Source: Desulfobacteraceae bacterium (GTDB taxonomy: Bacteria > Desulfobacterota > Desulfobacteria > Desulfobacterales > JAIFKL01). Taken from it: 22,190 nt of DNA. The notes below the pieces were generated by a model. The model did not search any database, was not told the DNA's origin, and saw only the letters and a program-made list of their open reading frames with translations. The translations under genes were made by a program, and so were the position numbers. Location: positions 1-22,190 of the forward strand of contig JAIFKL010000306.1 of the NCBI GenBank assembly GCA_020049595.1, read 5' to 3'. The first letter of the stretch is position 1. Each line of letters starts with the position of its first letter. Of the stretch, positions 1-22,190 are shown one piece after another.

Positions 1-641
1 GCATAGACCAGAATTGTGACGGCGTTGACTTGTCATGTATGCTCCCGACAGATACAGATAAAGACTATGACGGCTTCAGCGAATATCAGGGCGACTGTAA
101 CGACAATAACGCTTCAATTCATCCGGGAGCTACGGAAATCTGCGGCGACAGCATAGATCAGGATTGCAGCGGCGCTGACTTGTCGTGTACGCCCTCGACA
201 GGCATGGATAAAGACAACGACGGTTTCACAGCAGAGAAAAGCGACTGCAACGACAATGACGCTTCAATTCATCCGGGGGCGACAGAAATATGCGGCGACG
301 GCACAGATCAGGATTGCGACGGGAAAGATACAGCCTGCGCTCCCCCGCCGGAAACAGACAGCGACAAAGACGGCTATACCATCGGTGACGGCGACTGTAA
401 CGACACGAATGCGGCTGTCCGCCCGGACGCGGAAGAAGAAATCTGCGGGGACCGTGTAGATCAGAACTGCGACGGCTATGACTGCGCCCGGACGCCGACC
501 GACAATGACGGAGACGGCTATTCGGTAAAAGTGAATGACTGCAACGACAGTGACGGGAGCGTTTATCCGGGTGCGGCGGAAATATGCGGCGACGGCATTG
601 ACCAGAACTGTGACGGTAAAGACCTGCCGTGTGGTGAGTAA
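1..641 (+). CDS. Cys-rich secreted repeat protein with MopE-like putative metal-binding motif repeats (5' partial; ORF continues upstream of window)
   Basis: The reading frame is open from nt 3, and the codons upstream of the ATG at 30 continue the same repeat (IDQNCDGVDLSC). Five tandem repeats of ~45 aa follow the pattern D-x-D-G-[FY]-x(5)-DCND-x-[ND]-A-x-[IV]-[HRY]P-[GD]A-x-E-x-CGD-x-x-DQ-[DN]C-x-G-x-D. This matches the putative metal-binding motif family named after Methylococcus MopE and common in Myxococcus. Stop TAA at 639-641. Confidence 0.7.
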   Translation, partial: IDQNCDGVDLSCMLPTDTDKDYDGFSEYQGDCNDNNASIHPGATEICGDSIDQDCSGADLSCTPSTGMDKDNDGFTAEKSDCNDNDASIHPGATEICGDGTDQDCDGKDTACAPPPETDSDKDGYTIGDGDCNDTNAAVRPDAEEEICGDRVDQNCDGYDCARTPTDNDGDGYSVKVNDCNDSDGSVYPGAAEICGDGIDQNCDGKDLPCGE

Positions 642-5910: not shown

Positions 5911-8348
<2,438 letters not shown>

Positions 8349-8373
8349 CCTCTCCCACCCCTCCACCTCCCCT

Positions 8374-8434
8374 TTTTTAACCTCACCCCCGGCCCCCTCT
8401 CCGAAGGAGAGGGGGCCGGGGGTGAGGTTAAAAA
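8374..8434. repeat. Perfect 61-bp GC-rich palindrome (29-bp arms, GAA loop), preceded by a 30-nt all-pyrimidine tract (8349-8378)
   Basis: TTTTTAACCTCACCCCCGGCCCCCTCTCC GAA GGAGAGGGGGCCGGGGGTGAGGTTAAAAA lies immediately after the priA stop. A T-run precedes and an A-run follows it on both strands, so it is not a canonical intrinsic terminator in either direction. Confidence 0.85.
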
Positions 8435-8443
8435 CAAAAAAAA

Positions 8444-8472
8444 TTGACAAGCCCTTGATTATGTCACAATAA
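8444..8472 (+). promoter_or_regulatory. Possible sigma70-type promoter for the small ORF (TTGACA-17 nt-CAATAA)
   Basis: Consensus -35 TTGACA at 8444-8449 with a weak -10 candidate at 17-nt spacing. Sequence-only guess. Confidence 0.2.
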
Positions 8473-8532
8473 GATATTATATTTAACTTTAAACACATCA
8501 AACAACCCATCAGTTGAATAAGGAAAATAACA

Positions 8533-8721
8533 ATGATTACTCCTGTAAAAATTATCGGAGCCAATAAACTGCTTTCAGCCATGGGCAAAGCTCTGTTTGT
8601 TTCCAACATCATAAACACTGTCTCTTTTTTCGGTATCGGCAGCCTCATTATATGGCAGGTGTGGAGAGGCACGGAAGGCGTAAAGAAGCTGGGGACAAAA
8701 ATTGATGAATCCAAAAAATAA
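8533..8721 (+). CDS. Hypothetical small protein (62 aa) with one hydrophobic segment
   Basis: AAGGA sits 8 nt upstream of the ATG. The hydrophobic stretch VSFFGIGSLIIWQVW and a Lys-rich C-terminus are present. No family recognised. Confidence 0.4.
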   Translation: MITPVKIIGANKLLSAMGKALFVSNIINTVSFFGIGSLIIWQVWRGTEGVKKLGTKIDESKK

Positions 8722-8728
8722 AGGCTGG

Positions 8729-8811
8729 CTCGGAGTGCAAAAATTATCAGATACCCGTTTTTTGGCTTATGCAAAATAGCCTGATTTTATAAGACGCTTT
8801 TGCACTCCGGA
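8729..8811. terminator. Long-range inverted repeat (CTCGGAGTGCAAAA … TTTTGCACTCCGGAG) between convergent small genes; candidate bidirectional terminator
   Basis: 14-bp arms at 8729-8742 and 8797-8811 enclose a smaller GGCTTAT/ATAGCC stem. A CCCGTTTTTT half-copy of the dispersed repeat is also enclosed. Confidence 0.35.
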
Positions 8812-9060: not shown

Positions 9061-9083
9061 CGCTTCGCTCAGAATGACAATCC
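9061..9083 (-). repeat. Inverted copy of flank motif (reverse complement GGATTGTCATTCTGAGCGAAGCG)
   Basis: See feature 692-714. Again adjacent to a palindromic array, but in the opposite orientation. Confidence 0.5.
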
Positions 9084-9113
9084 AGACCCTAAGGGTTTTA
9101 AAAACCCTTAGGG
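9079..9113. repeat. Perfect 35-bp palindrome CAGACCCTAAGGGTTTT-A-AAAACCCTTAGGGTCTG
   Basis: 17-bp arms, read directly. It lies downstream of the channel operon and upstream of the small membrane-protein gene. Confidence 0.85.
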
Positions 9114-9135
9114 TCTGATTTCAAACTACATAAAA

Positions 9136-9323
9136 GTAGAACGGGTTTCAAACCCGTTTTACTGAATGATATAAAAGCAGAACGGGTTTCAAAACCCGTT
9201 TTACTGAATGACATAAAAGTAGAACGGGTTTCAAACCCGTTTTACCGGGATAAAGTAAGCAGAACGGGTTTCAAAACCCGTTTTACTGAATGACAAAAAA
9301 GCAAAACGGGTTTCAAAATCACC
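9136..9323 (+). repeat. Tandem array (4.5 copies, period ~41 nt) of palindromic element G[TC]AGAACGGGTTTCAAA(A)CCCGTTTTAC with TGAATGACATAAAAG-type spacers
   Basis: Copies at 9136, 9177, 9219, 9259 and a half copy at 9301. Alternate copies have a one-A-longer loop (CAAAACCC). The spacers are near-identical to one another, so these are not CRISPR spacers. Confidence 0.9.
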
Positions 9324-9355: not shown

Positions 9356-11602
9356 TCAGATGCGCTGACTGATATGACAGATATATATCTGCAAGGTGCT
9401 GACGCTTAAAATAATTGCAAAATTAATAAATTGTCCTGCACAGATCATCACCTTTTCAATTTTGTCTTTCTCTTTTTTTCTGTGCGAAGCATAACTCAGC
9501 AAAATGATAAAAACAGAAATTCCCGCCAATATAAAGACTGCCAGATGAGCATATTCAAGGGCTGACATATATGCTATCGGCAGGTCTGCAAAAAGCTTGA
9601 GATGAAAAACCGTATTTGCCGTCAATACGGCTGCCATCACAGACAGCGAAATGCCGAGCCGGTCTGCCGGCATAAGATACAGGATGCCGAAAATAATCAT
9701 CACCATGACGATGACCGGAAGAAAAGTTTTGAAGACAAACACAACGCCTTTCCTCTCAATCGGAATTGCCGCAGTAAAGCGGGAATAGCTGATGAGATGA
9801 TGCTTGTCAAAAAACTGGGGATTGCCGAGGGTGGAAACCTTTTCCACCGTATCCTGATAGAAATCCAGTTCGCCGAGCTGCCAGTCATCCGCATCTTTGA
9901 GCTTTGTTTTCTCAAGCATATTCTTTGCCTGCGGAAGCCCGAGCGTATCGGCAACATAAATCAACTGCTCTTTTTTCATTTCAATGTGCCGGAATCTTAT
10001 CTTCAACGTATGGCGGTCAAAAGGATAGGCGTGAAAATCAAAATCATTTTTGAAATCCGCTTTGATACGGTAAGCCCGAAACACAATACCCTTTTCGTCT
10101 GTTCCTTTGATAAAAGGCTGGCCCAGTTCAACCGGACTTACGGCGTTGAGAAATTCGATCTGAGTTTCATCAAAATCGCCTTTATAGCGGAACCAGAGAT
10201 AAAAATCTGCCGTATAACTTGAATGTATAGTATTCAGCTTGCTTATTTCATTCATATAGATTCCGGCATACACCACACGGGTCTGAGTCATCAGTTTTCC
10301 GTCGCTCAGTATGATGTCGCCTTCCAATGCCTTTCTGAACACATCCTCAACCTGCTCCCCTTCGGGAACAGGCTGATACTGAACAAAGTCGGGAAAGAGT
10401 GTCTGTTTTTCATAGAATCCGATGAAGGGCGGCCGGGAGACATTGCCTTTTGCATTAAAATAAATACGCCCGCTGACGCCTCTGATCGCATTTTCATAGT
10501 TGTAAAAACTTTTCAACGCCTCCCTGATTTTCCTCCGGTCGCTGCGTATATGCCCTTTTCCCTGTATGTCAGCTTTCTTGACAGCTTCCACCGCGACGTG
10601 CATCGCATCATAATAGCAGCCGGCTATCCATGAGGGTTCTTCTCTGTATTTTTTGATGAAAGACTGTCTGAAAAAATAGGCTTCTTTATCGGCAACATCT
10701 GTCAGAAGCGGTGATATCGCGAGAATGCCGTCGGAATAATATCCGGGATTCGACTGTTCTTTCGGATATTTTTTCAATGCCTCAATAAAAAAGCCTGTTG
10801 AAAGCGAATCCGGACCGATAGCAGGGTATTTTTTTCCCATGTCTCTTAAAAGCCGAATGGTTTCTGCCGCTTCAGGAAAGTGCATTGCCAGAAAAAGTAT
10901 TCCCGGATCGCCGGCGCTGTCTATTGACTCGGCAATCTTTTTTAAAACCGTATCAGGCTTTTGAGCGGAAGAATCGAATCCCCATTTTCCTTTAATATCA
11001 ATCCCCAGCTTTTTTGCCATTATTTCAAAATATTCGGCAAGAGAAGAGCCGTAACTGTCTTTATCAGATATGATCGTGGCAGATGTTGACTTCAAGGCTT
11101 TGCGAATATAATTTGCGATAAAATTGACTTGCGAAATATTGCCGGGAATAATTCTGAAATACCATTCATTATCAGAAGTAATCGCTTCCGCGCTGGCAGA
11201 CGCGGTCATCGCGCATATTTCATTCTGCTTATATATCTCTCCGGCAGCAATACAGGCACTGCTGTAATCATGTCCGAGTACCAGCAGCGCTTTTTTTGGG
11301 GAAGCAATTTCCGTAGCAACCTTCTTCGCAGTATGTTCATTGCTTTTATCATCAAAAACAAGCAGTTCTATCTTTTTCCCTGCCGGTTCGCCGCCCCTTT
11401 CGCGGAGGTGTTCCAGATACAGTTCCGCCCCTTTTAGCATTGCTTTTCCTCCTGCTTCTTCCGCACCGCTCATGGGACCCGCAAGGGCAATATAGATGAC
11501 TTCTTTTTTTAGCGGCGATAAAGGATGAAAGCGCAGGAAAGCGCCTGCTGCCCCCCCGATCATCAGCAGCAGAAAGATGATAACAATCAGTATTTTTTTC
11601 AT
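9356..11602 (-). CDS. Periplasmic-binding-protein (LivK-like PBP1) domain fused to prokaryotic pentameric ligand-gated ion channel (Pro-loop receptor), paralog A
   Basis: Signal peptide MKKILIVIIFLLLMIGGAAGA. The N-terminal ~400 aa are LivK/ANF-receptor-type PBP1 (IYIALAGPMSGAEEAGG…LLVLGHDYSSAC…). The C-terminal extracellular domain carries the Cys-less Cys-loop signature AYPFDRHTLKI (compare GLIC RYPFDSQTLHI). M1 has the conserved Pro (FKTFLPVIVMV). M2 ends in the LP-x-x-x-Y motif (FADLPIAYMSALEY, compare GLIC TNLPKTPYMTY). M3 and M4 follow a short intracellular loop. The track start at 11608 is TTG; the ATG at 11602 gives a clean signal peptide. Confidence 0.8.
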   Translation of the reverse strand: MKKILIVIIFLLLMIGGAAGAFLRFHPLSPLKKEVIYIALAGPMSGAEEAGGKAMLKGAELYLEHLRERGGEPAGKKIELLVFDDKSNEHTAKKVATEIASPKKALLVLGHDYSSACIAAGEIYKQNEICAMTASASAEAITSDNEWYFRIIPGNISQVNFIANYIRKALKSTSATIISDKDSYGSSLAEYFEIMAKKLGIDIKGKWGFDSSAQKPDTVLKKIAESIDSAGDPGILFLAMHFPEAAETIRLLRDMGKKYPAIGPDSLSTGFFIEALKKYPKEQSNPGYYSDGILAISPLLTDVADKEAYFFRQSFIKKYREEPSWIAGCYYDAMHVAVEAVKKADIQGKGHIRSDRRKIREALKSFYNYENAIRGVSGRIYFNAKGNVSRPPFIGFYEKQTLFPDFVQYQPVPEGEQVEDVFRKALEGDIILSDGKLMTQTRVVYAGIYMNEISKLNTIHSSYTADFYLWFRYKGDFDETQIEFLNAVSPVELGQPFIKGTDEKGIVFRAYRIKADFKNDFDFHAYPFDRHTLKIRFRHIEMKKEQLIYVADTLGLPQAKNMLEKTKLKDADDWQLGELDFYQDTVEKVSTLGNPQFFDKHHLISYSRFTAAIPIERKGVVFVFKTFLPVIVMVMIIFGILYLMPADRLGISLSVMAAVLTANTVFHLKLFADLPIAYMSALEYAHLAVFILAGISVFIILLSYASHRKKEKDKIEKVMICAGQFINFAIILSVSTLQIYICHISQRI

Positions 11603-11617
11603 AAACAAATGCCAGCC

Positions 11618-13855
11618 CTACTTCAGATAACAGGTATAGGCAATTAAAACAGCAATAACTGAAACCGCCGGAGGATAAAGAATCTTTGCCGCACGGCTGA
11701 GATATTTTATCTTGTTCCGAGCGTCTTTTTTCAGCAAATGTCTGACGCAGAGGAAAAAGAACAAAGACATTGCCGCCAATGCGTAAAATGAGAAAAAGGC
11801 ATATTCAATAAATAAAAAATACCCTGCCGAAGAAAAATAGTGATAAATCCTGAGATGATACAGTCCGCATGTCAGCGCCGCCGCTCCCAGCATCATCAGA
11901 CGGATGCCGAAGCGATCATGCGGCAGAAAATAGGTGAAATACAGTATCATAACCGCAATGAAAATCGGGAGAAAATTTTTGAGAATAAAGGCAAAACCGG
12001 TTCTTTCTCCCTGAAAGACCGCATTAAACTGTGAGTAATCAATATCTGTCTCATGGTAATTATCCGGAAATTTTCCGACAACAGTATTTTTCGTCACCGC
12101 GTCCTGATAAAAAAGAATACCGGTGATATTCCAGCTTTCAAGCATTCTTTTGGTCTGGTTTTCGATCTCATTTTTTATGGTTTCAAGCTGAGGCATGCCC
12201 AGTCTGTCAGGAACGAAGACCAGCCTGTTTCTCGGAATCTCTGTATTGCGGAGGCTGATTCTGATGGTCTGCTGTCCGAAGGGATATTTGTGAAAATCAA
12301 AAGCGACTTTGAAAGTCCCCTTTACCCGATAGGCTCTGACAGCGCTGCTGTCTGTTTTTGTTTCCATGATGGGACGGCTCAGGGCAACAGGCTTTACCGC
12401 GTTTGTAAACTCAATCAGACTTTCATCAAACTCTCCTTCAAACCGGAACCAGATATAAAAATCTATGGCGCAGGTTGAATTTTTTATATCGGAATTGCTG
12501 ATTTCATTAATATCAATGCCGGTATAAACAATCCTGAACTTCTCCATTTCTTTTTCATCAACCGTAATAAGGTCCTCTGCATGAGACGATGAAAGCGCGT
12601 GCTGCTCTGCTTCTGTTTCAGATACGAACTGATACTGGTAAAATGCCGGAAGGAACAGGCGTTTTTTATAGACGCCCATGGCCGGCGCCACGCTGACATC
12701 GCCGTGCGTGTCGAAGTACATGTTGCCGCATATCCCCGTGATTCCGGTTTCCGGGGAGTTCATTCTCGCCAATGCTTCTCTGAGCAGTTTCCGGCTTTCC
12801 CGTATGCTTATGACACCCTGAATTTCAGCCCTTTCAACCGCCTCGGCAGCAACCTGCATCGCGTCATAGTATGCGGCAGATACCCATGACGGTTCCTCTT
12901 TATACCTGTCGGCGAATTTTTTTCTGAATAAGTAAGCTTTTTCATTTGAAATATCGAGAATAAAGGGGGACACGGCATAAATATCGTCCGAATGGTATCC
13001 GGGAATGATCTGTTCTCCGGGATATCTTTTAAGATTCTCAAGAAATGTTTCCGCGGCAAGCGCATCCGAACCGACAATCGTATAACTTGTTCCGGGATAT
13101 TTCAATGACGCGACTATTTTTGCCGCTTCGGCACCGTGCATTGCCAGAAAAATCACCCCCGTGTCGTCTGTAGCTCTTAATTCGTCGGCAATCCGCTTTA
13201 CTTCAATGTCCGAATTTTTTTCATCCGTGTCAATTCCCCATTTTCCCTTAACCGTGATGCCCAATATCCCGGCAGATTTTTCAAATGCTTTGACAAGCGA
13301 TAACCCGTAAGAATCTTCGTCAAAAACAATGCTGACTTTATCTTTGTTCAGACTGCGGAAAATATAATTTGCGATAAAGCCGCCTTCAAAACGGTTCGCG
13401 GGGATGGTTCTGAAATACCAGTCATTGCCTGCAGTAATAAGGTCTGCTGTTGCAGAAGCGGTGATAACGGGCATACCTGTTTTTTTATAAACGTCTCCTG
13501 CCACAACAGAGGTTTCACTGGAATAATGACCCAGTACCAGCAGGACATTTTCATTTGCGACAATCTCAGACGCGGCTTTCATTGCCATGCGTTTATCGTC
13601 TCTGTCATCAAAGACAAGCAGTTCTATATTTCTGTCTTTGTGCTGTTTATTCCAGTCATCAGCGCAGAGACGGATCCCCTGAAGCATCCGCTGTCCCTGT
13701 AATTTCGCTTCTCCGCTGACAGGCAGCGCCACAGCAATCATAATCTTTTCTTTTTTGACAAAAGGAGAAAGCTGTGAATACTGGAGAATAAGCAGCACAG
13801 CCAGGGCGATCAGCGCCGATGCCGTTGCAGATATGAGCAGCCGTTTTCTTTTCAT
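11618..13855 (-). CDS. LivK-like PBP1 domain fused to pentameric ligand-gated ion channel, divergent paralog B
   Basis: Signal peptide MKRKRLLISATASALIALAVLLILQ from the ATG at 13855. The same PBP1-plus-channel architecture as A, with KYPFGQQTIRISL Pro-loop motif and M1 Pro (FLPIFIAVMILYF). M2 aligns to A but ends HLRIYHYF in place of HLKLFADLP, so the conserved LP is lost. The 9-nt gap to the downstream gene implies co-transcription. Confidence 0.75.
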   Translation of the reverse strand: MKRKRLLISATASALIALAVLLILQYSQLSPFVKKEKIMIAVALPVSGEAKLQGQRMLQGIRLCADDWNKQHKDRNIELLVFDDRDDKRMAMKAASEIVANENVLLVLGHYSSETSVVAGDVYKKTGMPVITASATADLITAGNDWYFRTIPANRFEGGFIANYIFRSLNKDKVSIVFDEDSYGLSLVKAFEKSAGILGITVKGKWGIDTDEKNSDIEVKRIADELRATDDTGVIFLAMHGAEAAKIVASLKYPGTSYTIVGSDALAAETFLENLKRYPGEQIIPGYHSDDIYAVSPFILDISNEKAYLFRKKFADRYKEEPSWVSAAYYDAMQVAAEAVERAEIQGVISIRESRKLLREALARMNSPETGITGICGNMYFDTHGDVSVAPAMGVYKKRLFLPAFYQYQFVSETEAEQHALSSSHAEDLITVDEKEMEKFRIVYTGIDINEISNSDIKNSTCAIDFYIWFRFEGEFDESLIEFTNAVKPVALSRPIMETKTDSSAVRAYRVKGTFKVAFDFHKYPFGQQTIRISLRNTEIPRNRLVFVPDRLGMPQLETIKNEIENQTKRMLESWNITGILFYQDAVTKNTVVGKFPDNYHETDIDYSQFNAVFQGERTGFAFILKNFLPIFIAVMILYFTYFLPHDRFGIRLMMLGAAALTCGLYHLRIYHYFSSAGYFLFIEYAFFSFYALAAMSLFFFLCVRHLLKKDARNKIKYLSRAAKILYPPAVSVIAVLIAYTCYLK

Positions 13856-13870
13856 TATGATACGCAAAGA

Positions 13871-13934
13871 AATTGAGAATTGAGAATTATTTCTCAATTC
13901 TCAATTCTCAATTTCTAATTACTAATTACTAATC
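13871..13934. repeat. Heptamer-repeat palindrome (AATTGAG x2 / CTCAATT x3) followed by TAATTAC x2, filling the intergenic gap between the lipoprotein and channel B genes
   Basis: AATTGAGAATTGAGAATT at 13871-13888 pairs with AATTCTCAATTCTCAATT. The TAATTAC repeats overlap the stop of the upstream gene (13929-13931). On the minus-strand mRNA the hairpin is followed by UUUCUUUG and then the ATG at 13855. Confidence 0.8.
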
Positions 13935-16661
13935 TTTAAGATACCAGTTTCGGATATGCTGACCCCCGATTGCCATCTGATACCAGCCTTTGACTCTCGG
14001 TTTTACCAGACAGTGCGCCGCCTCAAAATAAAGCGGAAAAATCACCGCCTGCTCTTCGCACAGAATCTGTTCCGCACGTTTGTAAATCTTTTTTCTCTCT
14101 TCGGGATTCGTGGTTTCCAATGCTTTTGTCATCAGATCGGCAAACTCCGCATTATCCCAGCCCGTAAAATTGTCCGGGTTGCGGGGGTTGAACAGTTCAT
14201 TGAGAATATTGTTCGCATCCGGATAATCCACAGACCAGCCGAACCTGCATATATGGTGCGAAGACGTATCCGGCTGATACAGATATTTCACATAATTATC
14301 CCATGTTTCTTCCCTGAGAATGAGATGAATGCTGAGATAATACTCCAACGATGCCTGAACCGCACGGGCAATCTCCGAATGGGTTTTGGAGGCATTGTAA
14401 AGGAGTTCTATCTCGGGAAAACCTTTGCCGTCCGGATAACCGGCTTCTGCCAGCCATTTTTTCGCCTGCAAAGGATCAAAACTGATGCCCACCCCGTTTT
14501 TCGGATCAACGGAACCCAGAATCGGCGGTGGCGTATAAGTCGTTGCCGGTGACTCGCCGCTTTTGGTGACCAGATCAATTAAAAACTGACGGTCAACCGC
14601 GGCGCAGATCGCCTTCCGAACCAGCGGATTGTCCATCGGCGGACGTTTGGTATTAAAGCCGTAGGAATATGTCGCAAACATCGGCGCTCTTGAATATTCT
14701 TTGCCGAGCTGGGGATTTGATTTAATATCATTCAGTTGTGCAAAAGGCAGCCGCAGATAGTTTCCGCCGGTTATGTCTAATTCGCTGTTTTCATACATGA
14801 CCAGACCCACCGCGCTTTCAGGTATGATGTAAAACCGGACTTCAGGGATGGAAACTTTTGACGCTTCGTAGTAATCCGGATTCTTCCTCAATATCATCAG
14901 CATCCCTTTGTCCCAGTACGTGAGTTTGTAAGAACCGTTTGTCTGAATGTTTTCAGGTTCTGTCCAGCGGTCCCCGTATTCTTCAACAGTCTCACGGGGC
15001 AGGGGTCTGTAAATCGCAAGCCCTGCCATTCCCGGAAAATACGCGGCAGGGTGTTCAAGCTCAAATTCCACGGTAAAATCATCGGGCGCATGTACGCCTA
15101 TCTGCGAGACATCCTTAATATTTCCGGCATTGATCTCTTTGGCGTTTTTCAGAATATAGAGCATGGAAACAGAGGGGCATTTGGTTTCCGGTCTGATATT
15201 CCGCTGAACTGCCCAGACAATATCACTCGCCGTAACCGGCTTGCCGCTTGTCCATTTGGCATCCTCGCGCAGTTTGAAGCGGTAGGTCTTTCCGTCATCG
15301 CTGACGGTCCAGCTCTGAGCCAGTTCGGGAACCGCTTCATAAGTTTTCGGATCAAAATCGGTCAGTCCCAGAAATATCTGCTCAACCGCTTCAACAGAGG
15401 AAATGTCCTGTGAAAGTCCCGGATCAACGGTCGTGATAAGCCCTTCCACGGGAAGCCGCAATGTGATTTCTTCCACCACATACAAAGGGCTGATTTCCTC
15501 TTTTGATTCATAATCCAACAGCTCGAATTTCCCGTTGCGAAGCTCTTTGAAAAAAATTTCTTTTCCGGCAATATCGCCGTTCAGCTTGAAAGAATAGGAG
15601 CCGGTAGCCCCTTTCCAGTTTTCTAAGAACCTCAGCGCGGATCCCATGGCAACGGGAACCGCGGAACCGCTCTTTTCAATGCTGTATGCCAGCAGTTGAA
15701 CCGCATCATATCCCTGAGCCGCCCATGTATCCGGCACCACGCCGAATTTTTTCCGAAACTTTTTGACAAAATCCCGTGTGCTTTTTGAAGGCATATCAGG
15801 ATTGAAAACCGAAGGAACGATCACATGCTCCGCGCTTTTCCCCGCCACCGTAAAAAGTTCCGGCGAGTCAAGGCTGTGTCCGCCGATAAAGGGAACGCTG
15901 ATGCCCATGCCTCGCGCCTGCTTGATCAGTTCTCCGGCAAAGGGAAGCAGTCCGCCGATAAAAACCGCATCAAATTTGTAATTTTTGGCAAGTTCCGATG
16001 TGATGCTCCTGAAATCTTTCTGCCATTTGAAATAAGAACGGACAGCGACAATCGTAATTCCCAGCTTGTCGGCTTCTTCGCTGAAAATATCGGCAAGGCG
16101 CTGGCCCGCGGTCTCTCTTTCATAAAAGACCGCCATTTTTCTGAATCCTTTCTGATAAGCCAGCGTTGCCGCCTTTTTTCCGGTTTCATCATCGGAGAGC
16201 ATATTTCTGAATGTATAGGTGCCGCCGTATTGTGTAAAGTTCGGGTCTGTCGCGCCCGTGGAAATAAAAAGAATACCCGTGTTTTCATAGATGATGGACA
16301 CCGGCACCGCAACGCCTGAGTAGCGATGCCCCACTACCGCAACCACATCGGGATGCGCTGCTAATTTCCTTGCAACAACCTGGGCAATATTGAGATATCT
16401 TTTGTCGTCGTAAAACAGGGGATGGATTTTTCTTCCCAGAGGTCCCCCCTGTTCGTTGATTTCCGACACTGCCAGATTGACGCCTTCCGTAAACAGGCTG
16501 GGATCAAAAGAAGAATCCACCACGCCGATACAAATATCCGCTTTTGACTCCCCGGCCCGTTTGGCTCTTTCTTCAGGCGATAGGGTGTCATTGCCGCAGG
16601 AAAAAACAGACAGCAGCGCTATGAGCAGAATAATGTGTTTACCTGTTTGCATCCGGCGCAT
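13929..16661 (-). CDS. Dual substrate-binding lipoprotein: N-terminal LivK-like PBP1 domain fused to C-terminal SBP family 5 (OppA/DppA/NikA-like) domain
   Basis: AGGAAA sits 6 nt upstream of the ATG. Lipobox LLSVFSCGND. Residues ~40-380 are PBP1 (ICIGVVDSS…VAVVGHRYSGVAVPVS…). Residues ~395-910 are SBP_bac_5 (VEQIFLGLTDFDPKTYEAVPELAQSWTVSDDGKTYRFKLREDAKWTSGKPVTASDIVWA…). The start overlaps the upstream SPFH gene's stop by 23 nt. Confidence 0.75.
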   Translation of the reverse strand: MRRMQTGKHIILLIALLSVFSCGNDTLSPEERAKRAGESKADICIGVVDSSFDPSLFTEGVNLAVSEINEQGGPLGRKIHPLFYDDKRYLNIAQVVARKLAAHPDVVAVVGHRYSGVAVPVSIIYENTGILFISTGATDPNFTQYGGTYTFRNMLSDDETGKKAATLAYQKGFRKMAVFYERETAGQRLADIFSEEADKLGITIVAVRSYFKWQKDFRSITSELAKNYKFDAVFIGGLLPFAGELIKQARGMGISVPFIGGHSLDSPELFTVAGKSAEHVIVPSVFNPDMPSKSTRDFVKKFRKKFGVVPDTWAAQGYDAVQLLAYSIEKSGSAVPVAMGSALRFLENWKGATGSYSFKLNGDIAGKEIFFKELRNGKFELLDYESKEEISPLYVVEEITLRLPVEGLITTVDPGLSQDISSVEAVEQIFLGLTDFDPKTYEAVPELAQSWTVSDDGKTYRFKLREDAKWTSGKPVTASDIVWAVQRNIRPETKCPSVSMLYILKNAKEINAGNIKDVSQIGVHAPDDFTVEFELEHPAAYFPGMAGLAIYRPLPRETVEEYGDRWTEPENIQTNGSYKLTYWDKGMLMILRKNPDYYEASKVSIPEVRFYIIPESAVGLVMYENSELDITGGNYLRLPFAQLNDIKSNPQLGKEYSRAPMFATYSYGFNTKRPPMDNPLVRKAICAAVDRQFLIDLVTKSGESPATTYTPPPILGSVDPKNGVGISFDPLQAKKWLAEAGYPDGKGFPEIELLYNASKTHSEIARAVQASLEYYLSIHLILREETWDNYVKYLYQPDTSSHHICRFGWSVDYPDANNILNELFNPRNPDNFTGWDNAEFADLMTKALETTNPEERKKIYKRAEQILCEEQAVIFPLYFEAAHCLVKPRVKGWYQMAIGGQHIRNWYLKD

Positions 16662-17934
16662 TCGTATTTCCTGTCAGTTCGGAGCGGTCTTTTTCAGTGA
16701 CCCTTCCGGTTCTGTCTTTTTCGGTTACCATTCCGGATTTATTTTTGATTTCAGATCGCTCGTCTTTTTGAGCCTGTTCTGTTTCACGGGGAACCGCTTC
16801 CCCGGCGTCACGTATAAATTCATATTTACGAGTTGTTCCGGTTTCACCGCCTGTTTTGCCGGTTTCCGCTGCTCCGCCCGTTTCTGTTTTTTCGGACGCC
16901 TCTGTTTTTCCGGCAGGCTCGGTTGTAATGCCTGTTTCTGTCTTTTCAGATGCTTCTGTTTTTCCGGCAGGCTCGGTTTTTCCGCCTGTTTCCGTGCCGG
17001 GGGCGGCTTTCTCGGATGATTCAGATTTTTCAAGGGCTTGGGTTTTTATCATCGGCTCTTCATTCAGTAAGATACTCCCTATGATCGGCAAGCCTCTTTT
17101 ACCCGCGCCGACAACCACAACTTTTGAATTGTCCGAATTGGCAAGCTGCAATGTTGCCTGAATGCCCATCCACTGCAATATATTTTCCGTAAGCGAGGCG
17201 TTTACAATATTGTTATAATCTTTTAATCCCCCGGCTTCGATACGCTTTCTTTCCGCCTCTCTTTTTTCCTTCTCTATCTTAAACAGATGCGCTTCCGCCA
17301 TGTGTTTCTGTTCGACTTTATAGCGTATGGAATCTGCAACGCTGTCAGGCAGTTCGACTTCTTTGATAATCACATCGTCAACTTTGATAAATCTTCGGGA
17401 AATCTGCTCAATCGCCTCGTTGATTGCCTGGTCTATCAGCCCTGTTTTTGTGGTGTAAATCTCCTCGGCATCCAACTGTCCCACAATCAGACGCAATACA
17501 GATTCGATTTCCGGGATCACAATTTCATTCACATAATCGGGACCCACTTTCTGGTGAAGCACGCCGAGCAGGTTATATTCGGGGTAATAACGGACAGATA
17601 TGGATAACTGAACCTTCAATCCGTTTTTCGTCAGCACATGAAACTTGTGTCCTGCCTGCTGTACCCTCATATTATAAACATAAAGTCTGTCCCAGGGATA
17701 AAGCAGATAAAGCCCCTCGGCAAAGACCTTATCCGTGATTGTTCCGCCGCCGAAGCGCTTGTATAAAACGCCCGCTTCCCCTGACTCAACCGTATAGACA
17801 ATATTGTTAAACAGATAGGCAATAAAGAGCAGTTGAATCAGAATAAGCACTATCAGCACGGAGACATTGCCCTGAAATTTTTCTAAAATGCCGTTATATA
17901 TATCTTTAATTTTATTAAATATTCTTTTAAACAT
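16639..17934 (-). CDS. SPFH/band-7 (stomatin/prohibitin/HflK-C family) membrane protein with coiled-coil and low-complexity repeat tail
   Basis: N-terminal TM (VSVLIVLILIQLLFIAYLF), then an SPFH domain (VESGEAGVLYKRFGGGTITDKVFAEGLYLLYPWDRLYVYNMRVQQAGHKFHVLTKNGLKVQLSISVRYYP…), a coiled-coil (KIEKEKREAERKRIEAGG) and a 17-aa tandem repeat tail (PAGKTEASEKTETG…). The track start is TTG at 17964; the ATG at 17934 is the likely start. Confidence 0.75.
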   Translation of the reverse strand: MFKRIFNKIKDIYNGILEKFQGNVSVLIVLILIQLLFIAYLFNNIVYTVESGEAGVLYKRFGGGTITDKVFAEGLYLLYPWDRLYVYNMRVQQAGHKFHVLTKNGLKVQLSISVRYYPEYNLLGVLHQKVGPDYVNEIVIPEIESVLRLIVGQLDAEEIYTTKTGLIDQAINEAIEQISRRFIKVDDVIIKEVELPDSVADSIRYKVEQKHMAEAHLFKIEKEKREAERKRIEAGGLKDYNNIVNASLTENILQWMGIQATLQLANSDNSKVVVVGAGKRGLPIIGSILLNEEPMIKTQALEKSESSEKAAPGTETGGKTEPAGKTEASEKTETGITTEPAGKTEASEKTETGGAAETGKTGGETGTTRKYEFIRDAGEAVPRETEQAQKDERSEIKNKSGMVTEKDRTGRVTEKDRSELTGNTNAPDANR

Positions 17935-17968
17935 TTCTTCTGATTTCCGGTTTAGCCCACCCAATAGC

Positions 17969-17995
17969 GTAGAACGGGTTTTAAACCCGTTTTAC
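17969..17995 (+). repeat. Single copy of palindromic element, loop variant (GTAGAACGGGTTTTAAACCCGTTTTAC)
   Basis: Direct reading. It lies between the ABC-transporter stop and the SPFH start. Confidence 0.85.
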
Positions 17996-18068
17996 TGCAT
18001 AAATATTTGTTTTGGCGGGCAGCAAGCTGCTCACCCTGCATCTGATTTCCGAATTTGCGGTTTTTAAT

Positions 18069-19703
18069 TTAAACCTGACTGCTGTACTCGACAAATTTGC
18101 CGTATTCCATCTTCAATACCCTGTCTGCAAAATCAAAATATCGGTCGTCATGGCTGACCGCGATAATTGTTTTTCCCTGCGCTCTCAGATCGTTTAATAA
18201 AACTTCATAAAAATATTTTCTGAAAATCGGATCCTGATCCGCGGCCCATTCGTCAAACACGCAAATCGGGCGTTCCTCAAGCAAAGCGGCAATCATTGCA
18301 AGTCGTTTCCGCTGTCCTGTGGAAAGCTTGATATTGGTAAATTCGCCGTCAATGACCTCTGTTTTCTTTTCCAATTCCATCAATTTGATAAGACTTCGGA
18401 TTCTATCGGCATCTGTTTCTCTCAAGCCGTAGAGCCTGTCAAACACATGAAAATCGCTGAAGATAATAGAAAACATCTCCCGATATGACTGATAAGATGT
18501 CTTGTCAATCGTCAAATCATCCACTCGGAGGGTGCCGGCATCGGGATAATACAGTCCGGTTAAAAGCTTGAGCAAAGTTGATTTTCCGCTGCCGTTGCCG
18601 CCGACGATAAAGATGATTTCTCCCTGCCGGGCCCTCATATTGACAGGCCCCACCGTAAATAAAGGCGTTCCGTAAGAATCGGTATAGGAAAAAGAAAGGT
18701 TCTCAAGACGGATTTCGTTAAAGGTTTCTATCTTTCTGACATGAGGCTTTCCCCCGACTTTAAACGGCGCTGCGGCTTTGTCCAATCTTGCTTCCAGTTC
18801 ATAGAGCGTTTCCACTGCCATATTTGCTCTGGAAAAAAGCGGTATCGCACCCACCATCAGATTCACCGGACCGATGATAAACAGAATGGCGGCAGTCAGC
18901 CGGATGACCAATGAAGGATTTGCCGGGTCCAATCTGGGCAGAACAAAAACAATAACAGCGAGTAATGTGTAAAAAAACACTTGGGAGAACATCAGTTCCG
19001 TGACAAATCTGAATCCGGTTTTGACCTTCAATTCCTCGGTTTCATCTGCTATTTTTGTCAGAAATCCGAAAAGATCATCGCTTTTTTTTCTGTTCATTTT
19101 GAGTTCTTTGAAGCCGTCAAGGGTCTGATTCAGCATATCAAAGAAATCGCTTTCTTTTCTTGCGGTCTCACGGATTTCTATGTCAATTTTATCCTGCTGC
19201 AACATATAATTGACGGTCGCCGCGCCGATGGCAATAACGGTGATGAAAAAAGCCAATTTCGATAAGACAGCAATATAGAACATGCAGAAAAACAGTACAA
19301 TGCCGGACTGGGCCGCGTTGATAATCAGCACGGCGGATTCGGAAATAAGATTGGTGTTATAAGTGATCCGAGTATAAATTTCCGCTTTTCCGGTGTTTTC
19401 CAGAAAAATAAGTTCCGAACTTCTGATTTTATCGGCAATCCTTACCCGTATGCGTTTGATGATGGCCTCGGCAAGAGCGGTTGCTCTTTTCAAAGCAAAT
19501 CGTTTTCCGATAATCACAATGGCGAAAGTAATCACAAACAGAAGAAAGAATCTGAAATTCAGGCTGTCGTAAGAAGCAGTGGCAGCCGCAGTGGTGATAA
19601 TGCCCAGCAGAAGTCCCTGCGCGATGCCCGAGACAATTGCCATAAACATCACCGATGTGCCGGAAACGGTTGATTCGTTTTTATATAGTTTCAGCAGATT
19701 CAT
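18069..19703 (-). CDS. ABC transporter, fused permease/ATPase, cyclic-peptide exporter family (SyrD/YojI-like)
   Basis: Six N-terminal TM helices, then an NBD with Walker A GGNGSGKST, ABC signature LSTGQRKRL, Walker B ICVFDEW and H-loop AVSHD. Size and arrangement (TMD-NBD, 544 aa) fit the cyclic-peptide transporter subfamily. Confidence 0.7.
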   Translation of the reverse strand: MNLLKLYKNESTVSGTSVMFMAIVSGIAQGLLLGIITTAAATASYDSLNFRFFLLFVITFAIVIIGKRFALKRATALAEAIIKRIRVRIADKIRSSELIFLENTGKAEIYTRITYNTNLISESAVLIINAAQSGIVLFFCMFYIAVLSKLAFFITVIAIGAATVNYMLQQDKIDIEIRETARKESDFFDMLNQTLDGFKELKMNRKKSDDLFGFLTKIADETEELKVKTGFRFVTELMFSQVFFYTLLAVIVFVLPRLDPANPSLVIRLTAAILFIIGPVNLMVGAIPLFSRANMAVETLYELEARLDKAAAPFKVGGKPHVRKIETFNEIRLENLSFSYTDSYGTPLFTVGPVNMRARQGEIIFIVGGNGSGKSTLLKLLTGLYYPDAGTLRVDDLTIDKTSYQSYREMFSIIFSDFHVFDRLYGLRETDADRIRSLIKLMELEKKTEVIDGEFTNIKLSTGQRKRLAMIAALLEERPICVFDEWAADQDPIFRKYFYEVLLNDLRAQGKTIIAVSHDDRYFDFADRVLKMEYGKFVEYSSQV

Positions 19704-19807
19704 GTAAAGTTTTTCTTATCGCAAGGACTGTCAGCAATCCACTGTCTGAATCAGGATTTTCAGGATTAAAGGATTCACGGGATATTTGTCCGAGTGCTAA
19801 TTATTGT

Positions 19808-19840
19808 AGGGGGCGCGCCGCCGGCGTGTCCCCTACGGTT
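19808..19840. other. GC-rich hairpin GTAGGGG-(GCGCGCCGCCGGCGTGT)-CCCCTAC at the 3' end of the hydrolase gene
   Basis: 7-bp stem with a self-complementary CGCCGGCG core in the loop. On the plus strand it is followed by GGTTTTAC. Possible terminator; weak. Confidence 0.3.
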
Positions 19841-21703
19841 TTACGATACGCGTATCCGAAATCGCTCATCCCAGATATAGGTGATGAATCCCTGACCCGG
19901 ATTGTCAGAAATCTCTTCCGGCTCTGCCGTTCTTTTTTCTCCCGAAGAAAGACCGCCGCCCAGAATCGTGATCGCATCAAAGATCACAATGTCTTTTATC
20001 TGTCCGTCCTCAGACCTTAATGTCCTGTTGGTGCAGGCTGCGATGGGGATACGGGTATTCGGGTCATAAACGATGCCGACGTCATAGCCCAGAAAGTTAC
20101 CGGATGCAATCAGCATGTTGTTCGAGAGATTTTTGTAGAGATTGGGACCGCACTGAGTTGCAGGATTCATCGGGAAATAAAGTTCCGGGTCAACCGTTGT
20201 GTCATTTACAAAATCATAGCCTTTGCCGAAGAGCTTGCCTTCGCCGATGAGTTTGATCCATTTGCACAGATTTTCAGGCGAGGAAATCATACACGCCGAT
20301 GAACTGGCAGCAGAGGGTTCACGAGTCGAAGCATCTTCCAAGCCCTTGTCTTTACTTCCGTACATCGCGCCGGTCACATCATACAGGTCAATGTAGCCGT
20401 GAGCATAATTTCCCTCTGTCGGATTCTGAGTATATGGACCTTCAAGGTTTGATTCTCCTGTTTCAGTAACAATGGTGTCGCTGAGTCCGTATTTCTTGAT
20501 AAAACGGTTCCGTATCTCATCTTCCCATTTATTGCCGGTCACTTCCTTTATGAGCATTCCCAGCAGAACATAATTCGTATTCGAGTAATGCCAGCCCGCT
20601 CCGGGAGGAAAGGTCGGACCTTCTTCAACAGCAAGTTCAATGAGTTCGAGCGGTTCCCATTTGTCCTGACGGAGAAAGAGAAAATCAAAAAACCAGTCAG
20701 AAGGCACTTCATAAAAATTGTACAGCCCGCTGGAATGATTCACCACCTGACGGATATTGATGTTTTCCCCGTTGGGAATCAGTCCGGGGAACCACTGTTC
20801 AACAGAATCGTCCAGCGTGATTTTTCCCTCTTCGACAAGCTGCATGACGGCCATTGCCACAAATGTTTTGGTCAGACTGGCGACCCGGAACCGGGTATTT
20901 GTGGTCATCTGTGTTTTTGTTTCCAAGTTGGAATAACCGCTGGTCAGTTTCCATGTGAAAGCACCGTCCGAATAGGTCACACCGTCCATTACGCCGTTTA
21001 AGCAGTCGTCTCCCTCACAGGGAACTTCAGCAACCAGGGCCACGCCGGGGACCTCGTTTTCGGAAACAGCTTTATCCAAAATGTCCTGCAATTTTGTCCG
21101 AATAAAGTGATTCTGCGCCCTGACTGCTGAAACCATATCCCGCTCTTTGCCCAGCAAATCAGCGATGACAGGCTCTGTTTTCGTCTCAAATTCGCTCGAA
21201 CTTAATGAAAAGTCAACTTCTGTACTGTATTTCTTTGATTTTTCTCTCACGGATTCTGACAGAAGAATGCCGTTATCCGGATTCGCGTCGTCATCCAATG
21301 TCTGCAAAAAGCGCAGAATATTTGTCACCTGCGGGTCTCTGTCGCTTTCCGCTGCGGAAACCAAATCTCTGGGCGTCAGCGTCAGAACAGCCGGAGCAAG
21401 TTCCGCTTTGTTTACATCCAGTGTCAGCACGGTTGTCGCAGACCCGAGTACAATGTTTCCAAGCTTGAAGGTAACATTTTTGCCTTTTTCATAGAAGAAA
21501 GTGCCGTCCGCGTCGGTTACGCCGGTAAGCCCCCCGGAAATATAGCTCAGACCCTGAACCGCACTGTCTATAAAACGTCCTTCTCTTTCGGACACATAGT
21601 CCTCATGTTCGCCGCTGCACCCGAAAGCAGACATCATCACTACCAGCATCGCTGCAAAAAGATAAGGTGTTTTATCAAACACGATATTTCGTTTTTTCCT
21701 CAT
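19841..21703 (-). CDS. Beta-lactamase-fold serine hydrolase (PBP/esterase family) lipoprotein with ~210-aa N-terminal extension of unknown function
   Basis: AAGGAG sits 7 nt upstream of the ATG. Lipobox MSAFGCSG. The S-x-x-K active-site motif FRVASLTKTF and the YSN-type motif HYSNTNY are both present. The C-terminal part is Gly/Asn-rich. Confidence 0.7.
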   Translation of the reverse strand: MRKKRNIVFDKTPYLFAAMLVVMMSAFGCSGEHEDYVSEREGRFIDSAVQGLSYISGGLTGVTDADGTFFYEKGKNVTFKLGNIVLGSATTVLTLDVNKAELAPAVLTLTPRDLVSAAESDRDPQVTNILRFLQTLDDDANPDNGILLSESVREKSKKYSTEVDFSLSSSEFETKTEPVIADLLGKERDMVSAVRAQNHFIRTKLQDILDKAVSENEVPGVALVAEVPCEGDDCLNGVMDGVTYSDGAFTWKLTSGYSNLETKTQMTTNTRFRVASLTKTFVAMAVMQLVEEGKITLDDSVEQWFPGLIPNGENINIRQVVNHSSGLYNFYEVPSDWFFDFLFLRQDKWEPLELIELAVEEGPTFPPGAGWHYSNTNYVLLGMLIKEVTGNKWEDEIRNRFIKKYGLSDTIVTETGESNLEGPYTQNPTEGNYAHGYIDLYDVTGAMYGSKDKGLEDASTREPSAASSSACMISSPENLCKWIKLIGEGKLFGKGYDFVNDTTVDPELYFPMNPATQCGPNLYKNLSNNMLIASGNFLGYDVGIVYDPNTRIPIAACTNRTLRSEDGQIKDIVIFDAITILGGGLSSGEKRTAEPEEISDNPGQGFITYIWDERFRIRVS

Positions 21704-21886: not shown

Positions 21887-21993
21887 ACAGAACGGGTTTC
21901 AAACCCGTTTTACTGTTCATTGCTGTAGAACGGGTTTCAAAACCCGTTTTACTGTCCGGTTTGCTGTAGAACGGGTTTCAAACCCGTTTTACT
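21887..21993 (+). repeat. Tandem array (3 copies, period ~40 nt) of the palindromic element
   Basis: Copies at 21887, 21926 and 21967, with TGTTCATTGCT and TGTCCGGTTTGCT spacers. Same plus orientation as all other arrays, although both flanking genes are on the minus strand. Confidence 0.9.
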
Positions 21994-22020: not shown

Positions 22021-22190
22021 TTAAAAACTTATTTTCACACCCGCGCCGATGGAAGTATCCCTTTTGCGGATTCCCATTATGGATTCAGGCGAATTGTCGT
22101 ATTCCTCCTTGTAACTGAGGGAAGCGAATATATGCTCCATGATCATGATATCCAGTCCCACATTGAACTTCCATCGGTATATGTCGCTGT
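22021..22190 (-). CDS. Outer-membrane beta-barrel protein, C-terminal end only (3' partial in window)
   Basis: The minus-strand frame is open to the window edge. It ends …DIYRWKFNVGLDIMIMEHIFASLSYKEEYDNSPESIMGIRKRDTSIGAGVKISF*, with alternating hydrophobic residues and a C-terminal Phe typical of OMP beta-barrels. Confidence 0.45.
   Translation of the reverse strand, partial: SDIYRWKFNVGLDIMIMEHIFASLSYKEEYDNSPESIMGIRKRDTSIGAGVKISF

Follow-up and report, generated by a model that had tools for sequence, protein, structure and literature searches.

Here we describe a gene on the minus strand (13929-16661) of a 22,190-nt stretch of a Desulfobacteraceae bacterium genome (contig JAIFKL010000306.1, positions 1 to 22,190; hereafter the window), which encodes a 910-residue predicted lipoprotein in which a LivK-like PBP1 (periplasmic binding protein, Peripla_BP_6) domain is followed by an OppA-like SBP5 (substrate-binding protein, SBP_bac_5) domain. 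We read this fusion, with a probability of about 0.5, as a lipid-anchored, periplasmic, ligand-capturing co-receptor of one or more PBP1-headed ion channels of the pentameric ligand-gated type (pLGICs), and not as the binding protein of an importer. A role with the channels is the best reading because the association between the fusion and channel genes is strongly conserved and holds in both directions.

For the analysis of gene neighbourhoods, open reading frames (ORFs) were called in fetched loci and labelled by BLAST against the domains of the window. The fusion loci counted number 37, the window included; among them are 14 genome loci, the KSB3 and Ca. Desulfarcum loci, four with divergent fusions and 17 from metagenomes. 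A PBP1-pLGIC gene is the next same-strand gene downstream of the fusion in 36 of the 37 loci with enough flank, an SPFH/Band_7 gene lies directly upstream in all 30 loci with upstream flank, and genes for importer permeases or ATPases adjoin the fusion in none of the 37. Within the genome loci, the channel gene follows immediately in 12 of 14 and the SPFH gene precedes directly in 12 of the 12 with flank; in locus L012 the channel is the next same-strand gene past a 784-nt gap, and in L006 the fusion is followed by a non-ribosomal peptide synthetase (NRPS) gene and there is no channel. The KSB3 and Ca. Desulfarcum contigs show the same gene order (SPFH, fusion, channel), and the four divergent fusions (39-46% identity) also have Band_7 upstream and PBP1-pLGIC downstream; two of their channels carry C-terminal cadherin repeats, and two of their loci are flanked by polyketide synthase (PKS), thioesterase, racemase and ATP-binding cassette (ABC) genes. 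The metagenome loci have a channel downstream in 17 of 17 cases and SPFH directly upstream in 12 of the 12 with flank.

The reciprocal test used the channel alignment as query; 80 metagenome loci were fetched, and the 67 with at least 1.8 kb of upstream sequence were counted. This SBP5 is encoded directly upstream of the channel in 59 of these 67, fused to PBP1 in 17 and alone in 42. The position of the fusion directly upstream of PBP1-headed channels, which the first-pass annotation had pointed out in the window, is therefore conserved when approached from either gene, and the gene neighbourhood of the fusion is that of an accessory binding protein of a prokaryotic pLGIC.

The fusion protein itself is read from an uninterrupted ORF of 910 codons plus stop in the translation of the window. 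Its N-terminus, MRRMQTGKHIILLIALLSVFSC, contains a signal peptide and lipobox (residues 1-22, ...LLSVFSC; 16596-16661, minus strand), read from the sequence; in an alignment of 90 homologues, Cys22 is kept in 88, the position before it is Ser, Ala or Gly in 88, and the +2 residue is Asp in 35, and the protein is accordingly predicted to be a bacterial lipoprotein. The PBP1 half spans about residues 41-381 (15519-16541, minus strand) and is delimited by Pfam, matches in the PDB, alignment to LivK and its place in the tree. Peripla_BP_6 covers residues 58-366 (E 3.7e-42), ANF_receptor also matches (E 1.6e-22), and the best solved structures are 4mlc/4q6b (E 3e-64), followed by LivK/LivJ (LivK at E 4e-33). 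The SBP5 half spans about residues 399-910 (13932-15467, minus strand) and is delimited in the same way, with OppA as reference: SBP_bac_5 covers residues 443-828 (E 7.4e-80), and OppA proteins are the best solved matches (E 4e-72 to 7e-68). NCBIfam returns matches of the OppA and LivJ/K types, both under their equivalog cut-offs. The domain scan thus gives Peripla_BP_6 and then SBP_bac_5, and together with the ORF, the lipobox and the homologues it bears out the earlier claim of a single-polypeptide PBP1 and SBP5 lipoprotein.

An AlphaFold2 model built with 90 homologues has two confident domains (mean pLDDT, the predicted local distance difference test, of 92) and a predicted TM-score of 0.69, so that the relative orientation of the two domains in the model is not fixed. 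Between them lies a linker at about residues 382-398 (15468-15518, minus strand), recognised by a dip in pLDDT and low conservation; the model is of low confidence at about residues 385-395 (pLDDT about 61 in the block 381-390 and below 50 at 385-387), and the segment is poorly conserved up to T400, R402 and P404, which are conserved. In Foldseek searches against the PDB all matches are half-length (TM-score to the query of at most 0.52), and hence no solved protein covers both halves. For the C-terminal half, OppA structures are found at E 1e-49 with a TM-score to the target of 0.8-0.93 and 26-31% identity, and the structural matches include PrgZ, Bacillus subtilis OppA with Phr peptide and AapF, members of the OppA family to which signalling peptides bind.

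The same two-domain architecture is found in about 100 protein clusters from independent assemblies, at 93-100% query coverage and down to 38% identity. The carriers are mostly Desulfobacterales, but Ca. Magnetomorum, KSB3, Spirochaetota and Ca. Kentrum are also represented, Desulfonema magnum has a homologue too, and the source annotation of these homologues is ABC transporter substrate-binding protein. A filter-free HMMER scan of 1.84 billion protein representatives returned at least 26 clusters at 50% identity with the PBP1+SBP5 architecture. That the fusion is an assembly or frameshift artefact joining two adjacent genes, a possibility that the first-pass annotation had wished to see checked, is in our view vanishingly improbable, because the entire two-domain architecture recurs in independent homologues with identities as low as 38%. 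The split forms in other lineages, stand-alone SBP5 and stand-alone PBP1, are the only hint in its favour, against which stand the continuous ORF, the conserved T400, R402 and P404 right after the linker, an SBP5 half without a signal peptide of its own and the confident two-domain model; we therefore rejected it on the conservation of the fusion across independent clusters. Among the best 150 of the 1.84 billion representatives we found only PBP1+SBP5 proteins, SBP5+SBP5 tandems and very long multi-SBP5 proteins; tandem SBP5+SBP5 or up to four SBP5 domains are seen in P0133, P0145, P0207, P0258 (2,700-3,460 aa), P0139, P0146, P0153 and P0162.

The two genes downstream of the fusion encode paralogous proteins, both with an N-terminal Peripla_BP_6/ANF_receptor domain in Pfam, of 759 residues (11618-13897, minus strand, likely ATG at 13855) and 750 residues (9356-11608, minus strand, likely ATG at 11602). 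The first carries a Cys-loop-like motif (FDFHKYPFGQQ) and four hydrophobic segments, as read from the translation. In the second, the C-terminal 314 residues match ELIC and GABA-A receptor chains in the PDB across both the extracellular and the transmembrane regions (E 3e-9 to 1e-6); further matches are LGIC_1 (E 8e-6) and LIC in NCBIfam. From these features both are predicted pLGICs, with an extracellular beta-sandwich and four transmembrane helices. Their PBP1 heads are 44% identical and their channel parts 37%. Adjacent pairs of PBP1-pLGIC paralogues recur in L001, L004, L008-L010, L013-L015, L088-L091, L106 and L142 besides the window, and such paired paralogues suggest heteromeric bacterial pLGICs, as opposed to the homopentamers assumed in earlier work. 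Some channels carry extra C-terminal domains past the last transmembrane segment, namely cadherin repeats in L084 (10716-13787) and L087 (5682-8480) and a cyclic-nucleotide-binding (cNMP) domain in L001 (9873-12515), and unusually long partner channels occur in L103-L105 (about 1188 aa) and L012 (9876-13274).

The two halves of the fusion have separate affiliations. Stand-alone SBP5 proteins with 50-55% identity to the C-terminal half are found in Thiomargarita, Parabeggiatoa, Thioploca, Marithrix, Mariprofundaceae and Endobugula. The majority are lipoproteins, and of 23 genome loci 18 have them beside a PBP1-pLGIC gene and none beside an SPFH gene. In the SBP5 tree, these channel-adjacent stand-alone proteins and the fused C-terminal halves form one clade. 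Stand-alone PBP1 orthologues (30-48% identity to the N-terminal half) lie next to a channel in 0 of 39 loci; an SPFH gene, usually accompanied by a TIGR01194 ABC exporter, precedes them in 22 of 37, and in Anaerolineae and some other lineages they follow instead the NHLP-bacteriocin export set (TIGR03794/03796/03797). In the PBP1 tree, the fused N-terminal halves nest inside this exporter-linked clade, apart from a second stand-alone group that has no exporter or SPFH neighbours and is taken to be LivK-type transporter binding proteins. By these sequence comparisons, the half evolutionarily tied to the channels is the OppA-like one. The exporter/SPFH-associated PBP1 and the channel-associated OppA-like SBP5 having separate histories, the fusion is a Rosetta-stone-type join of two modules. 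In large sulfur bacteria, a gene for a protein with TPR and OmpA domains is also found upstream of the stand-alone SBP5 and PBP1-pLGIC genes (L017, L019, L024, L026, L029, L037 and L039).

These affiliations bear on how the lipoprotein might meet the channels. Dimerisation of PBP1 domains is familiar from eukaryotic receptors, and the PBP1 domain of the lipoprotein could, as the first-pass annotation put forward as its alternative, heterodimerise with the PBP1 heads of the channels, as in eukaryotic class C G-protein-coupled receptors and the amino-terminal domains of ionotropic glutamate receptors, given that the fusion and both channels carry Peripla_BP_6/ANF_receptor domains. The fused PBP1 half and the heads of the channels are, however, only 22-25% identical and fall into different clades, many channel-adjacent partners are SBP5 alone and have no PBP1 half with which to pair, and stand-alone PBP1 orthologues never adjoin channels, so that we hold such pairing to be quite improbable; the comparative data, split forms included, lend it no support. 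PBP1-domain dimerisation in eukaryotic receptors is mentioned in a passage of PMC12664993.

The affiliation of the PBP1 half with exporters also raises a role in which the channels are merely co-located and the lipoprotein, together with the ABC and SPFH proteins, is a periplasmic accessory of peptide or non-ribosomal peptide export, such as a chaperone, a sequestering or immunity factor, or a carrier that passes the product on to a protein of the outer membrane. Genes for orthologues of the PBP1 half consistently come straight after peptide exporters (TIGR01194 with SPFH, or NHLP bacteriocin ABC1/ABC2/HlyD), and those linked to exporters often come with NRPS, thioesterase and phosphopantetheinyl transferase (PPTase) genes and no channel: 13 of the stand-alone PBP1 loci hold an NRPS of 2,000-3,300 aa, and type II thioesterase, Sfp-type PPTase and DUF697 genes are frequent. 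TIGR01194 ABC orthologues recur beside SPFH in both fusion and stand-alone PBP1 loci, and NRPS or PKS genes are present in the fusion loci L006, L013, L014, L084 and L087; the channel-less L006, in which an NRPS follows the fusion, and the genes for DUF481 and an S12 peptidase that lie upstream in both the window and L013 would fit an export accessory as well. Nevertheless, both the SBP5 half and its orthologues that stand alone keep to the channels, even in loci devoid of exporter and SPFH genes such as those of the large sulfur bacteria, and a pure export accessory would not explain an SBP5 directly upstream of nearly nine in ten channel genes counted. We consider this role possible but unlikely.

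Several further observations concern the exporters and their PBP1 companions. Pairs of ABC half-transporters (each about 540 aa long and scoring about 300 bits against the ABC protein of the window) lie downstream of the channel in L086 (6485-9708), L136, L150, L151, L161 and L165, and since the ABC pairs in several loci follow the channel and do not precede SPFH, the exporter recurs in the operon without keeping to one position. LivK-like PBP1 genes come directly after the NHLP-bacteriocin set (HlyD TIGR03794, ABC1 TIGR03796, ABC2 TIGR03797) in L041, L044, L045, L049, L053 and L066, and these PBP1 proteins of Anaerolineae and others are an unexplained accessory of an exporter of ribosomally synthesized and post-translationally modified peptides (RiPPs). 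In Acidobacteriota, Chlorobiaceae and Desulfuromonadaceae, SPFH-linked stand-alone PBP1 proteins have an N-terminal transmembrane anchor and the motif W.SFE.MGE.RF in place of a lipobox (L055-L072 and L078; e.g., L068, 9824-10996); their clusters include NRPS genes, a gene for a 436-aa protein without a Pfam match, DUF697 and PPTase.

Key ligand-binding residues are retained in both halves of the fusion. Arg413 and Asp419 of OppA align to R806 and D812, of which D812 is kept in 75 of the 90 homologues and R806 in 55. In OppA, Asp419 forms a salt bridge with the alpha-amino group of the peptide, and the conservation of D812 therefore points to a ligand whose N-terminus is free. In the PBP1 half, S79 and G100-A101-T102 of LivK align to S115 and G136-A137-T138, all conserved; of the two LivK residues that hold the alpha-ammonium group, Tyr202 and Glu226, the equivalent of Y202 is L238, which varies across the family, and that of Glu226 falls just past the aligned stretch, near an invariant D265 whose register is uncertain. 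In fold and residues, the C-terminal half is that of a predicted OppA-type binding protein (SBP_bac_5 with D812 and R806) and the N-terminal half that of a predicted LivJ/LivK-type protein (Peripla_BP_6 with the carboxylate-binding Ser and Ala-Thr motif), the residues themselves being hints about a ligand and no more.

Such resemblance is also what would be expected if the fusion were an orphan binding protein that hands oligopeptides (SBP5), branched-chain amino acids (PBP1) or both to distant Opp and Liv permeases, its proximity to the channels reflecting shared regulation only. There are known cases of orphan OppA paralogues relying on a shared permease, PrgZ being an example, and PrgZ is among the fold matches of the C-terminal half; the strong similarity to OppA and LivK, the retained ligand-anchoring residues, the annotation of the homologues and SAR324 relatives (53% identity) whose canonical Opp operon includes the permease and ATPase genes all point the same way. 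By gene context, however, the fusion is not a canonical Opp or Liv importer binding protein. Importer permease and ATPase genes are adjacent in none of the 37 fusion loci, and no LivHMGF-type neighbours were found there; linkage to pLGIC and SPFH genes is near-obligate both ways in several phyla; and the clade into which the PBP1 half falls is one whose genes accompany peptide exporters, canonical LivK-type proteins forming a separate clade. We judge service to a distant importer improbable.

Against a co-receptor role, in turn, several points have to be set. The sister group of the channel-linked SBP5 clade consists of a few SAR324 and deltaproteobacterial SBP5s, and since some of these, from SAR324, are encoded in a canonical Opp operon, the domain could dock to an Opp permease encoded elsewhere. 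The trees are neighbour-joining trees that carry no support values. Eight of the 67 channel loci have no SBP5, the loci are not independent, many being drawn from one metagenome (Ga0272440) or from related metagenome-assembled genomes, and some of the 'stand-alone' SBP5 ORFs touch contig ends and may be truncated fusions. Of about 20 fusion loci with good flanks, only 5 show NRPS or PKS genes, and the NRPS of the window is itself deduced from its relative L013. Triple fusions, in which SBP5 or PBP1+SBP5 would be joined to a PBP1-pLGIC, are absent from the best 150 of the 1.84 billion representatives. Finally, contact of an SBP with a pLGIC is not known from any experiment or structure.

How a co-receptor might work can be sketched from the operon, which we take to have the conserved form of a peptide-export ABC gene (where present), SPFH/Band_7, the PBP1+SBP5 lipoprotein and one or two PBP1-headed pLGIC genes, and which often lies in or beside an NRPS/PKS cluster. 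We infer contact with the channel, delivery and identity of the ligand, a link from export to gating, and the topology and role of the SPFH protein. A peptide-like secondary metabolite would be made and exported by the TIGR01194-type ABC protein and, in the window, perhaps trimmed by the S12 D-peptidase lipoprotein. The OppA-like half would capture it through its free alpha-amino group, using the equivalent of OppA Asp419, and the LivK-like half, which keeps the carboxylate-binding Ser and Ala-Thr motif, may bind ligand too. The liganded lipoprotein would then dock on, or pass its ligand to, the PBP1 heads of a possibly heteromeric pLGIC and so gate an ion flux, while the SPFH protein probably scaffolds the assembly. 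We regard the full chain, from an NRPS/PKS-derived secreted peptide through ABC export, periplasmic processing and lipoprotein capture to a heteromeric Cys-loop-type channel with a stomatin-like scaffold, as speculative and rather unlikely to hold in its entirety. If it did, it would constitute a self-contained bacterial chemical-to-electrical unit, an autocrine or cell-to-cell 'transmitter-receptor' pair, and the first natural agonist system for prokaryotic pLGICs.

In the window, the fusion gene is part of a minus-strand block (9356-21703) transcribed in the order S12 peptidase, ABC, SPFH, fusion, channel 1 and channel 2. The SPFH/Band_7 gene (16639-17964, minus strand; Pfam Band_7, E 2.8e-24) encodes a stomatin/HflK-like membrane protein, and its stop overlaps the start of the fusion gene by 23 nt; the fusion gene is translationally coupled to it. 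This coupling and the peptide-export and NRPS/PKS context had escaped the first-pass annotation. At 441 aa, the SPFH protein of the window compares with about 280-405 aa for homologues in other loci, and its C-terminal ~130 residues form a low-complexity tail of Thr/Glu/Lys/Gly-rich repeats (GKTEASEKTETG...). We had considered the SPFH protein as a stomatin-style regulator of the channel, a candidate we downgraded, as SPFH tracks the PBP1 half and the exporter and is found in channel-less loci as well.

Further upstream, a YojI-like ABC half-transporter of the cyclic-peptide-export family TIGR01194 (18069-19703, minus strand) has fused transmembrane and nucleotide-binding domains of the exporter type (TIGR01194, 343.7 bits where the cut-off is 286.2; PRK10522, E 1.4e-102). 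It had been stated earlier that no importer ABC genes lie nearby, and Pfam and NCBIfam indeed find no importer permease or ATPase gene in the 22,190-nt window; to this it must be added that an ABC gene does lie close by, the only one in the window, and that it is an exporter. The next gene (19841-21703, minus strand) encodes a lipoprotein with an S12 (beta-lactamase-fold) D-peptidase domain (Pfam Beta-lactamase, E 7e-45), which in the PDB is closest to alkaline D-peptidase (E 2e-42) and R61 DD-peptidase and more weakly matches SurE and ClbP; it has a predicted lipobox (SAFGC), an SLTK motif and a putative additional domain of about 200 residues that is not assigned to a family. It could serve in periplasmic processing of a peptide containing D-amino acids, and its gene is conserved in position only in L013.

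The block is preceded by the 3' end of a DUF481 gene running off the window (22021-22190, minus strand), recognised by tblastn with 84% identity to the last 55 residues of the DUF481 protein of L013. That locus, the closest relative (86% identity), shares the gene order up to the window end, and upstream of its DUF481 gene there is an NRPS with Condensation, AMP-binding and PP-binding domains. DUF481 and peptidase genes overlap in L013 and are about 300 nt apart in the window, with one copy of a palindrome in between. At the other end, past the last channel gene, a scan for terminator-like structures returned a hairpin cluster (9082-9241, minus strand) of three copies of AACGGGTTTGAAACCCGTT plus a 17-bp stem, which likely marks the end of the operon; with the 23-nt overlap between SPFH and fusion, the other gaps are short. 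The palindrome, AACGGGTTT(T)GAAACCCGTT followed by CT(A/G)CTTTTAT, occurs in three copies at 9082-9241 (minus strand) and a fourth at 21889-21911 (plus strand), upstream of the S12 peptidase gene, so that repeats resembling repetitive extragenic palindromes (REP) bracket the six-gene block.

Outside the block, the ORF at 8034-8774 has no match in Pfam or NCBIfam. Two plus-strand ORFs located upstream of DUF1318 and priA are seemingly unrelated to the fusion: one of 203 aa (30-641, plus strand) with four putative metal-binding motifs of the MopE type (PF11617), and one of 1362 aa (1093-5181, plus strand) with no Pfam match and only a sub-threshold NCBIfam match to GspN.

ELIC, GLIC and DeCLIC serve as structural models of bacterial pLGICs, for which, to our knowledge, physiological ligands and roles are not established. 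The operon offers candidates: an OppA-like/LivK-like co-receptor, two possibly heteromeric channels, a stomatin-like partner, and linked peptide biosynthesis and export as a possible source of ligand. The fusion thereby points to an uncharacterised and widespread operon, from which natural agonists and partners of bacterial Cys-loop-type channels might be learned, as well as to a clade of LivK-like proteins found in the company of peptide exporters and not of importers, which are at present annotated merely as ABC-transporter substrate-binding proteins.

Compared with the binding proteins of known importers, the C-terminal half has the same fold as OppA, MppA and DppE (TM-score to the target of 0.8-0.93) and retains the Arg413 and Asp419 equivalents but, unlike them, stands behind a PBP1 domain, has no adjacent OppBCDF in any fusion locus and belongs to a separate, channel-linked clade. 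Likewise, the N-terminal half shares its fold, Ser79 and the Gly/Ala100-Ala101-Thr102 equivalents with LivJ/LivK and the 'extracellular ligand-binding receptor' of 4mlc/4q6b, but differs from LivJ/LivK in that the Tyr202 equivalent is not conserved, LivHMGF neighbours are lacking and the clade is encoded after peptide exporters and SPFH. In animals, stomatin and other SPFH proteins regulate ion channels, examples being MEC-2 with MEC-4/10, stomatin with ASICs and podocin with TRPC6. The SPFH gene is invariably linked to the operon of lipoprotein plus channel and in this resembles these pairs; unlike the animal stomatins, it is also present in channel-less loci and absent from the loci examined with stand-alone SBP5 and channel, and since its presence follows that of the PBP1 half and the exporter, not that of the channel, the analogy is a weak one.

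Closer precedents lie among bacterial receptors. Bacterial pLGICs fused to PBP-I domains, and pLGIC genes beside genes for stand-alone proteins of the PBP-II superfamily with which they were proposed to cooperate, are described in passages of Tasneem, Iyer, Jakobsson & Aravind 2004 (PMC549065), so that PBP-associated bacterial pLGICs were already predicted in 2004, and the fused SBP5 partner and its operon are a new variation. The genes downstream of the fusion are PBP-I and pLGIC fusions as in that work. Compared with what its passages describe, the partner here is a specific OppA-type (SBP_bac_5) clade, fused to a LivK-type domain in Desulfobacterales, KSB3 and some others, and the operon adds SPFH, a peptide-export ABC protein and NRPS/PKS neighbours and often has two channel paralogues; the passages of PMC549065 on PBPs, operons and neighbourhoods mention none of the SBP5 clade or fusion, SPFH, the exporter, NRPS/PKS or paired channels. 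A literature search likewise found no description of a PBP1+SBP5 fusion, of the operon, of its SPFH link or of its exporter/NRPS link. Binding-protein-dependent signal receptors, for their part, include DppA/Tap, MBP/Tar, LuxP/LuxQ, BasB/BasT and the OppA-like pheromone receptor PrgZ, as covered in a 2021 review (PMC8050422), in the text of which a term search finds no 'ion channel'. The fusion resembles these systems as an SBP without an importer of its own, encoded beside the gene of a membrane receptor and presumed to present the ligand to it; it differs in that the SBP is a lipoprotein fused from two folds, that its interaction with the receiver is deduced, and that this receiver would be an ion channel, which, if the co-receptor reading is true, would add ion channels to the receivers of binding-protein-dependent signalling.

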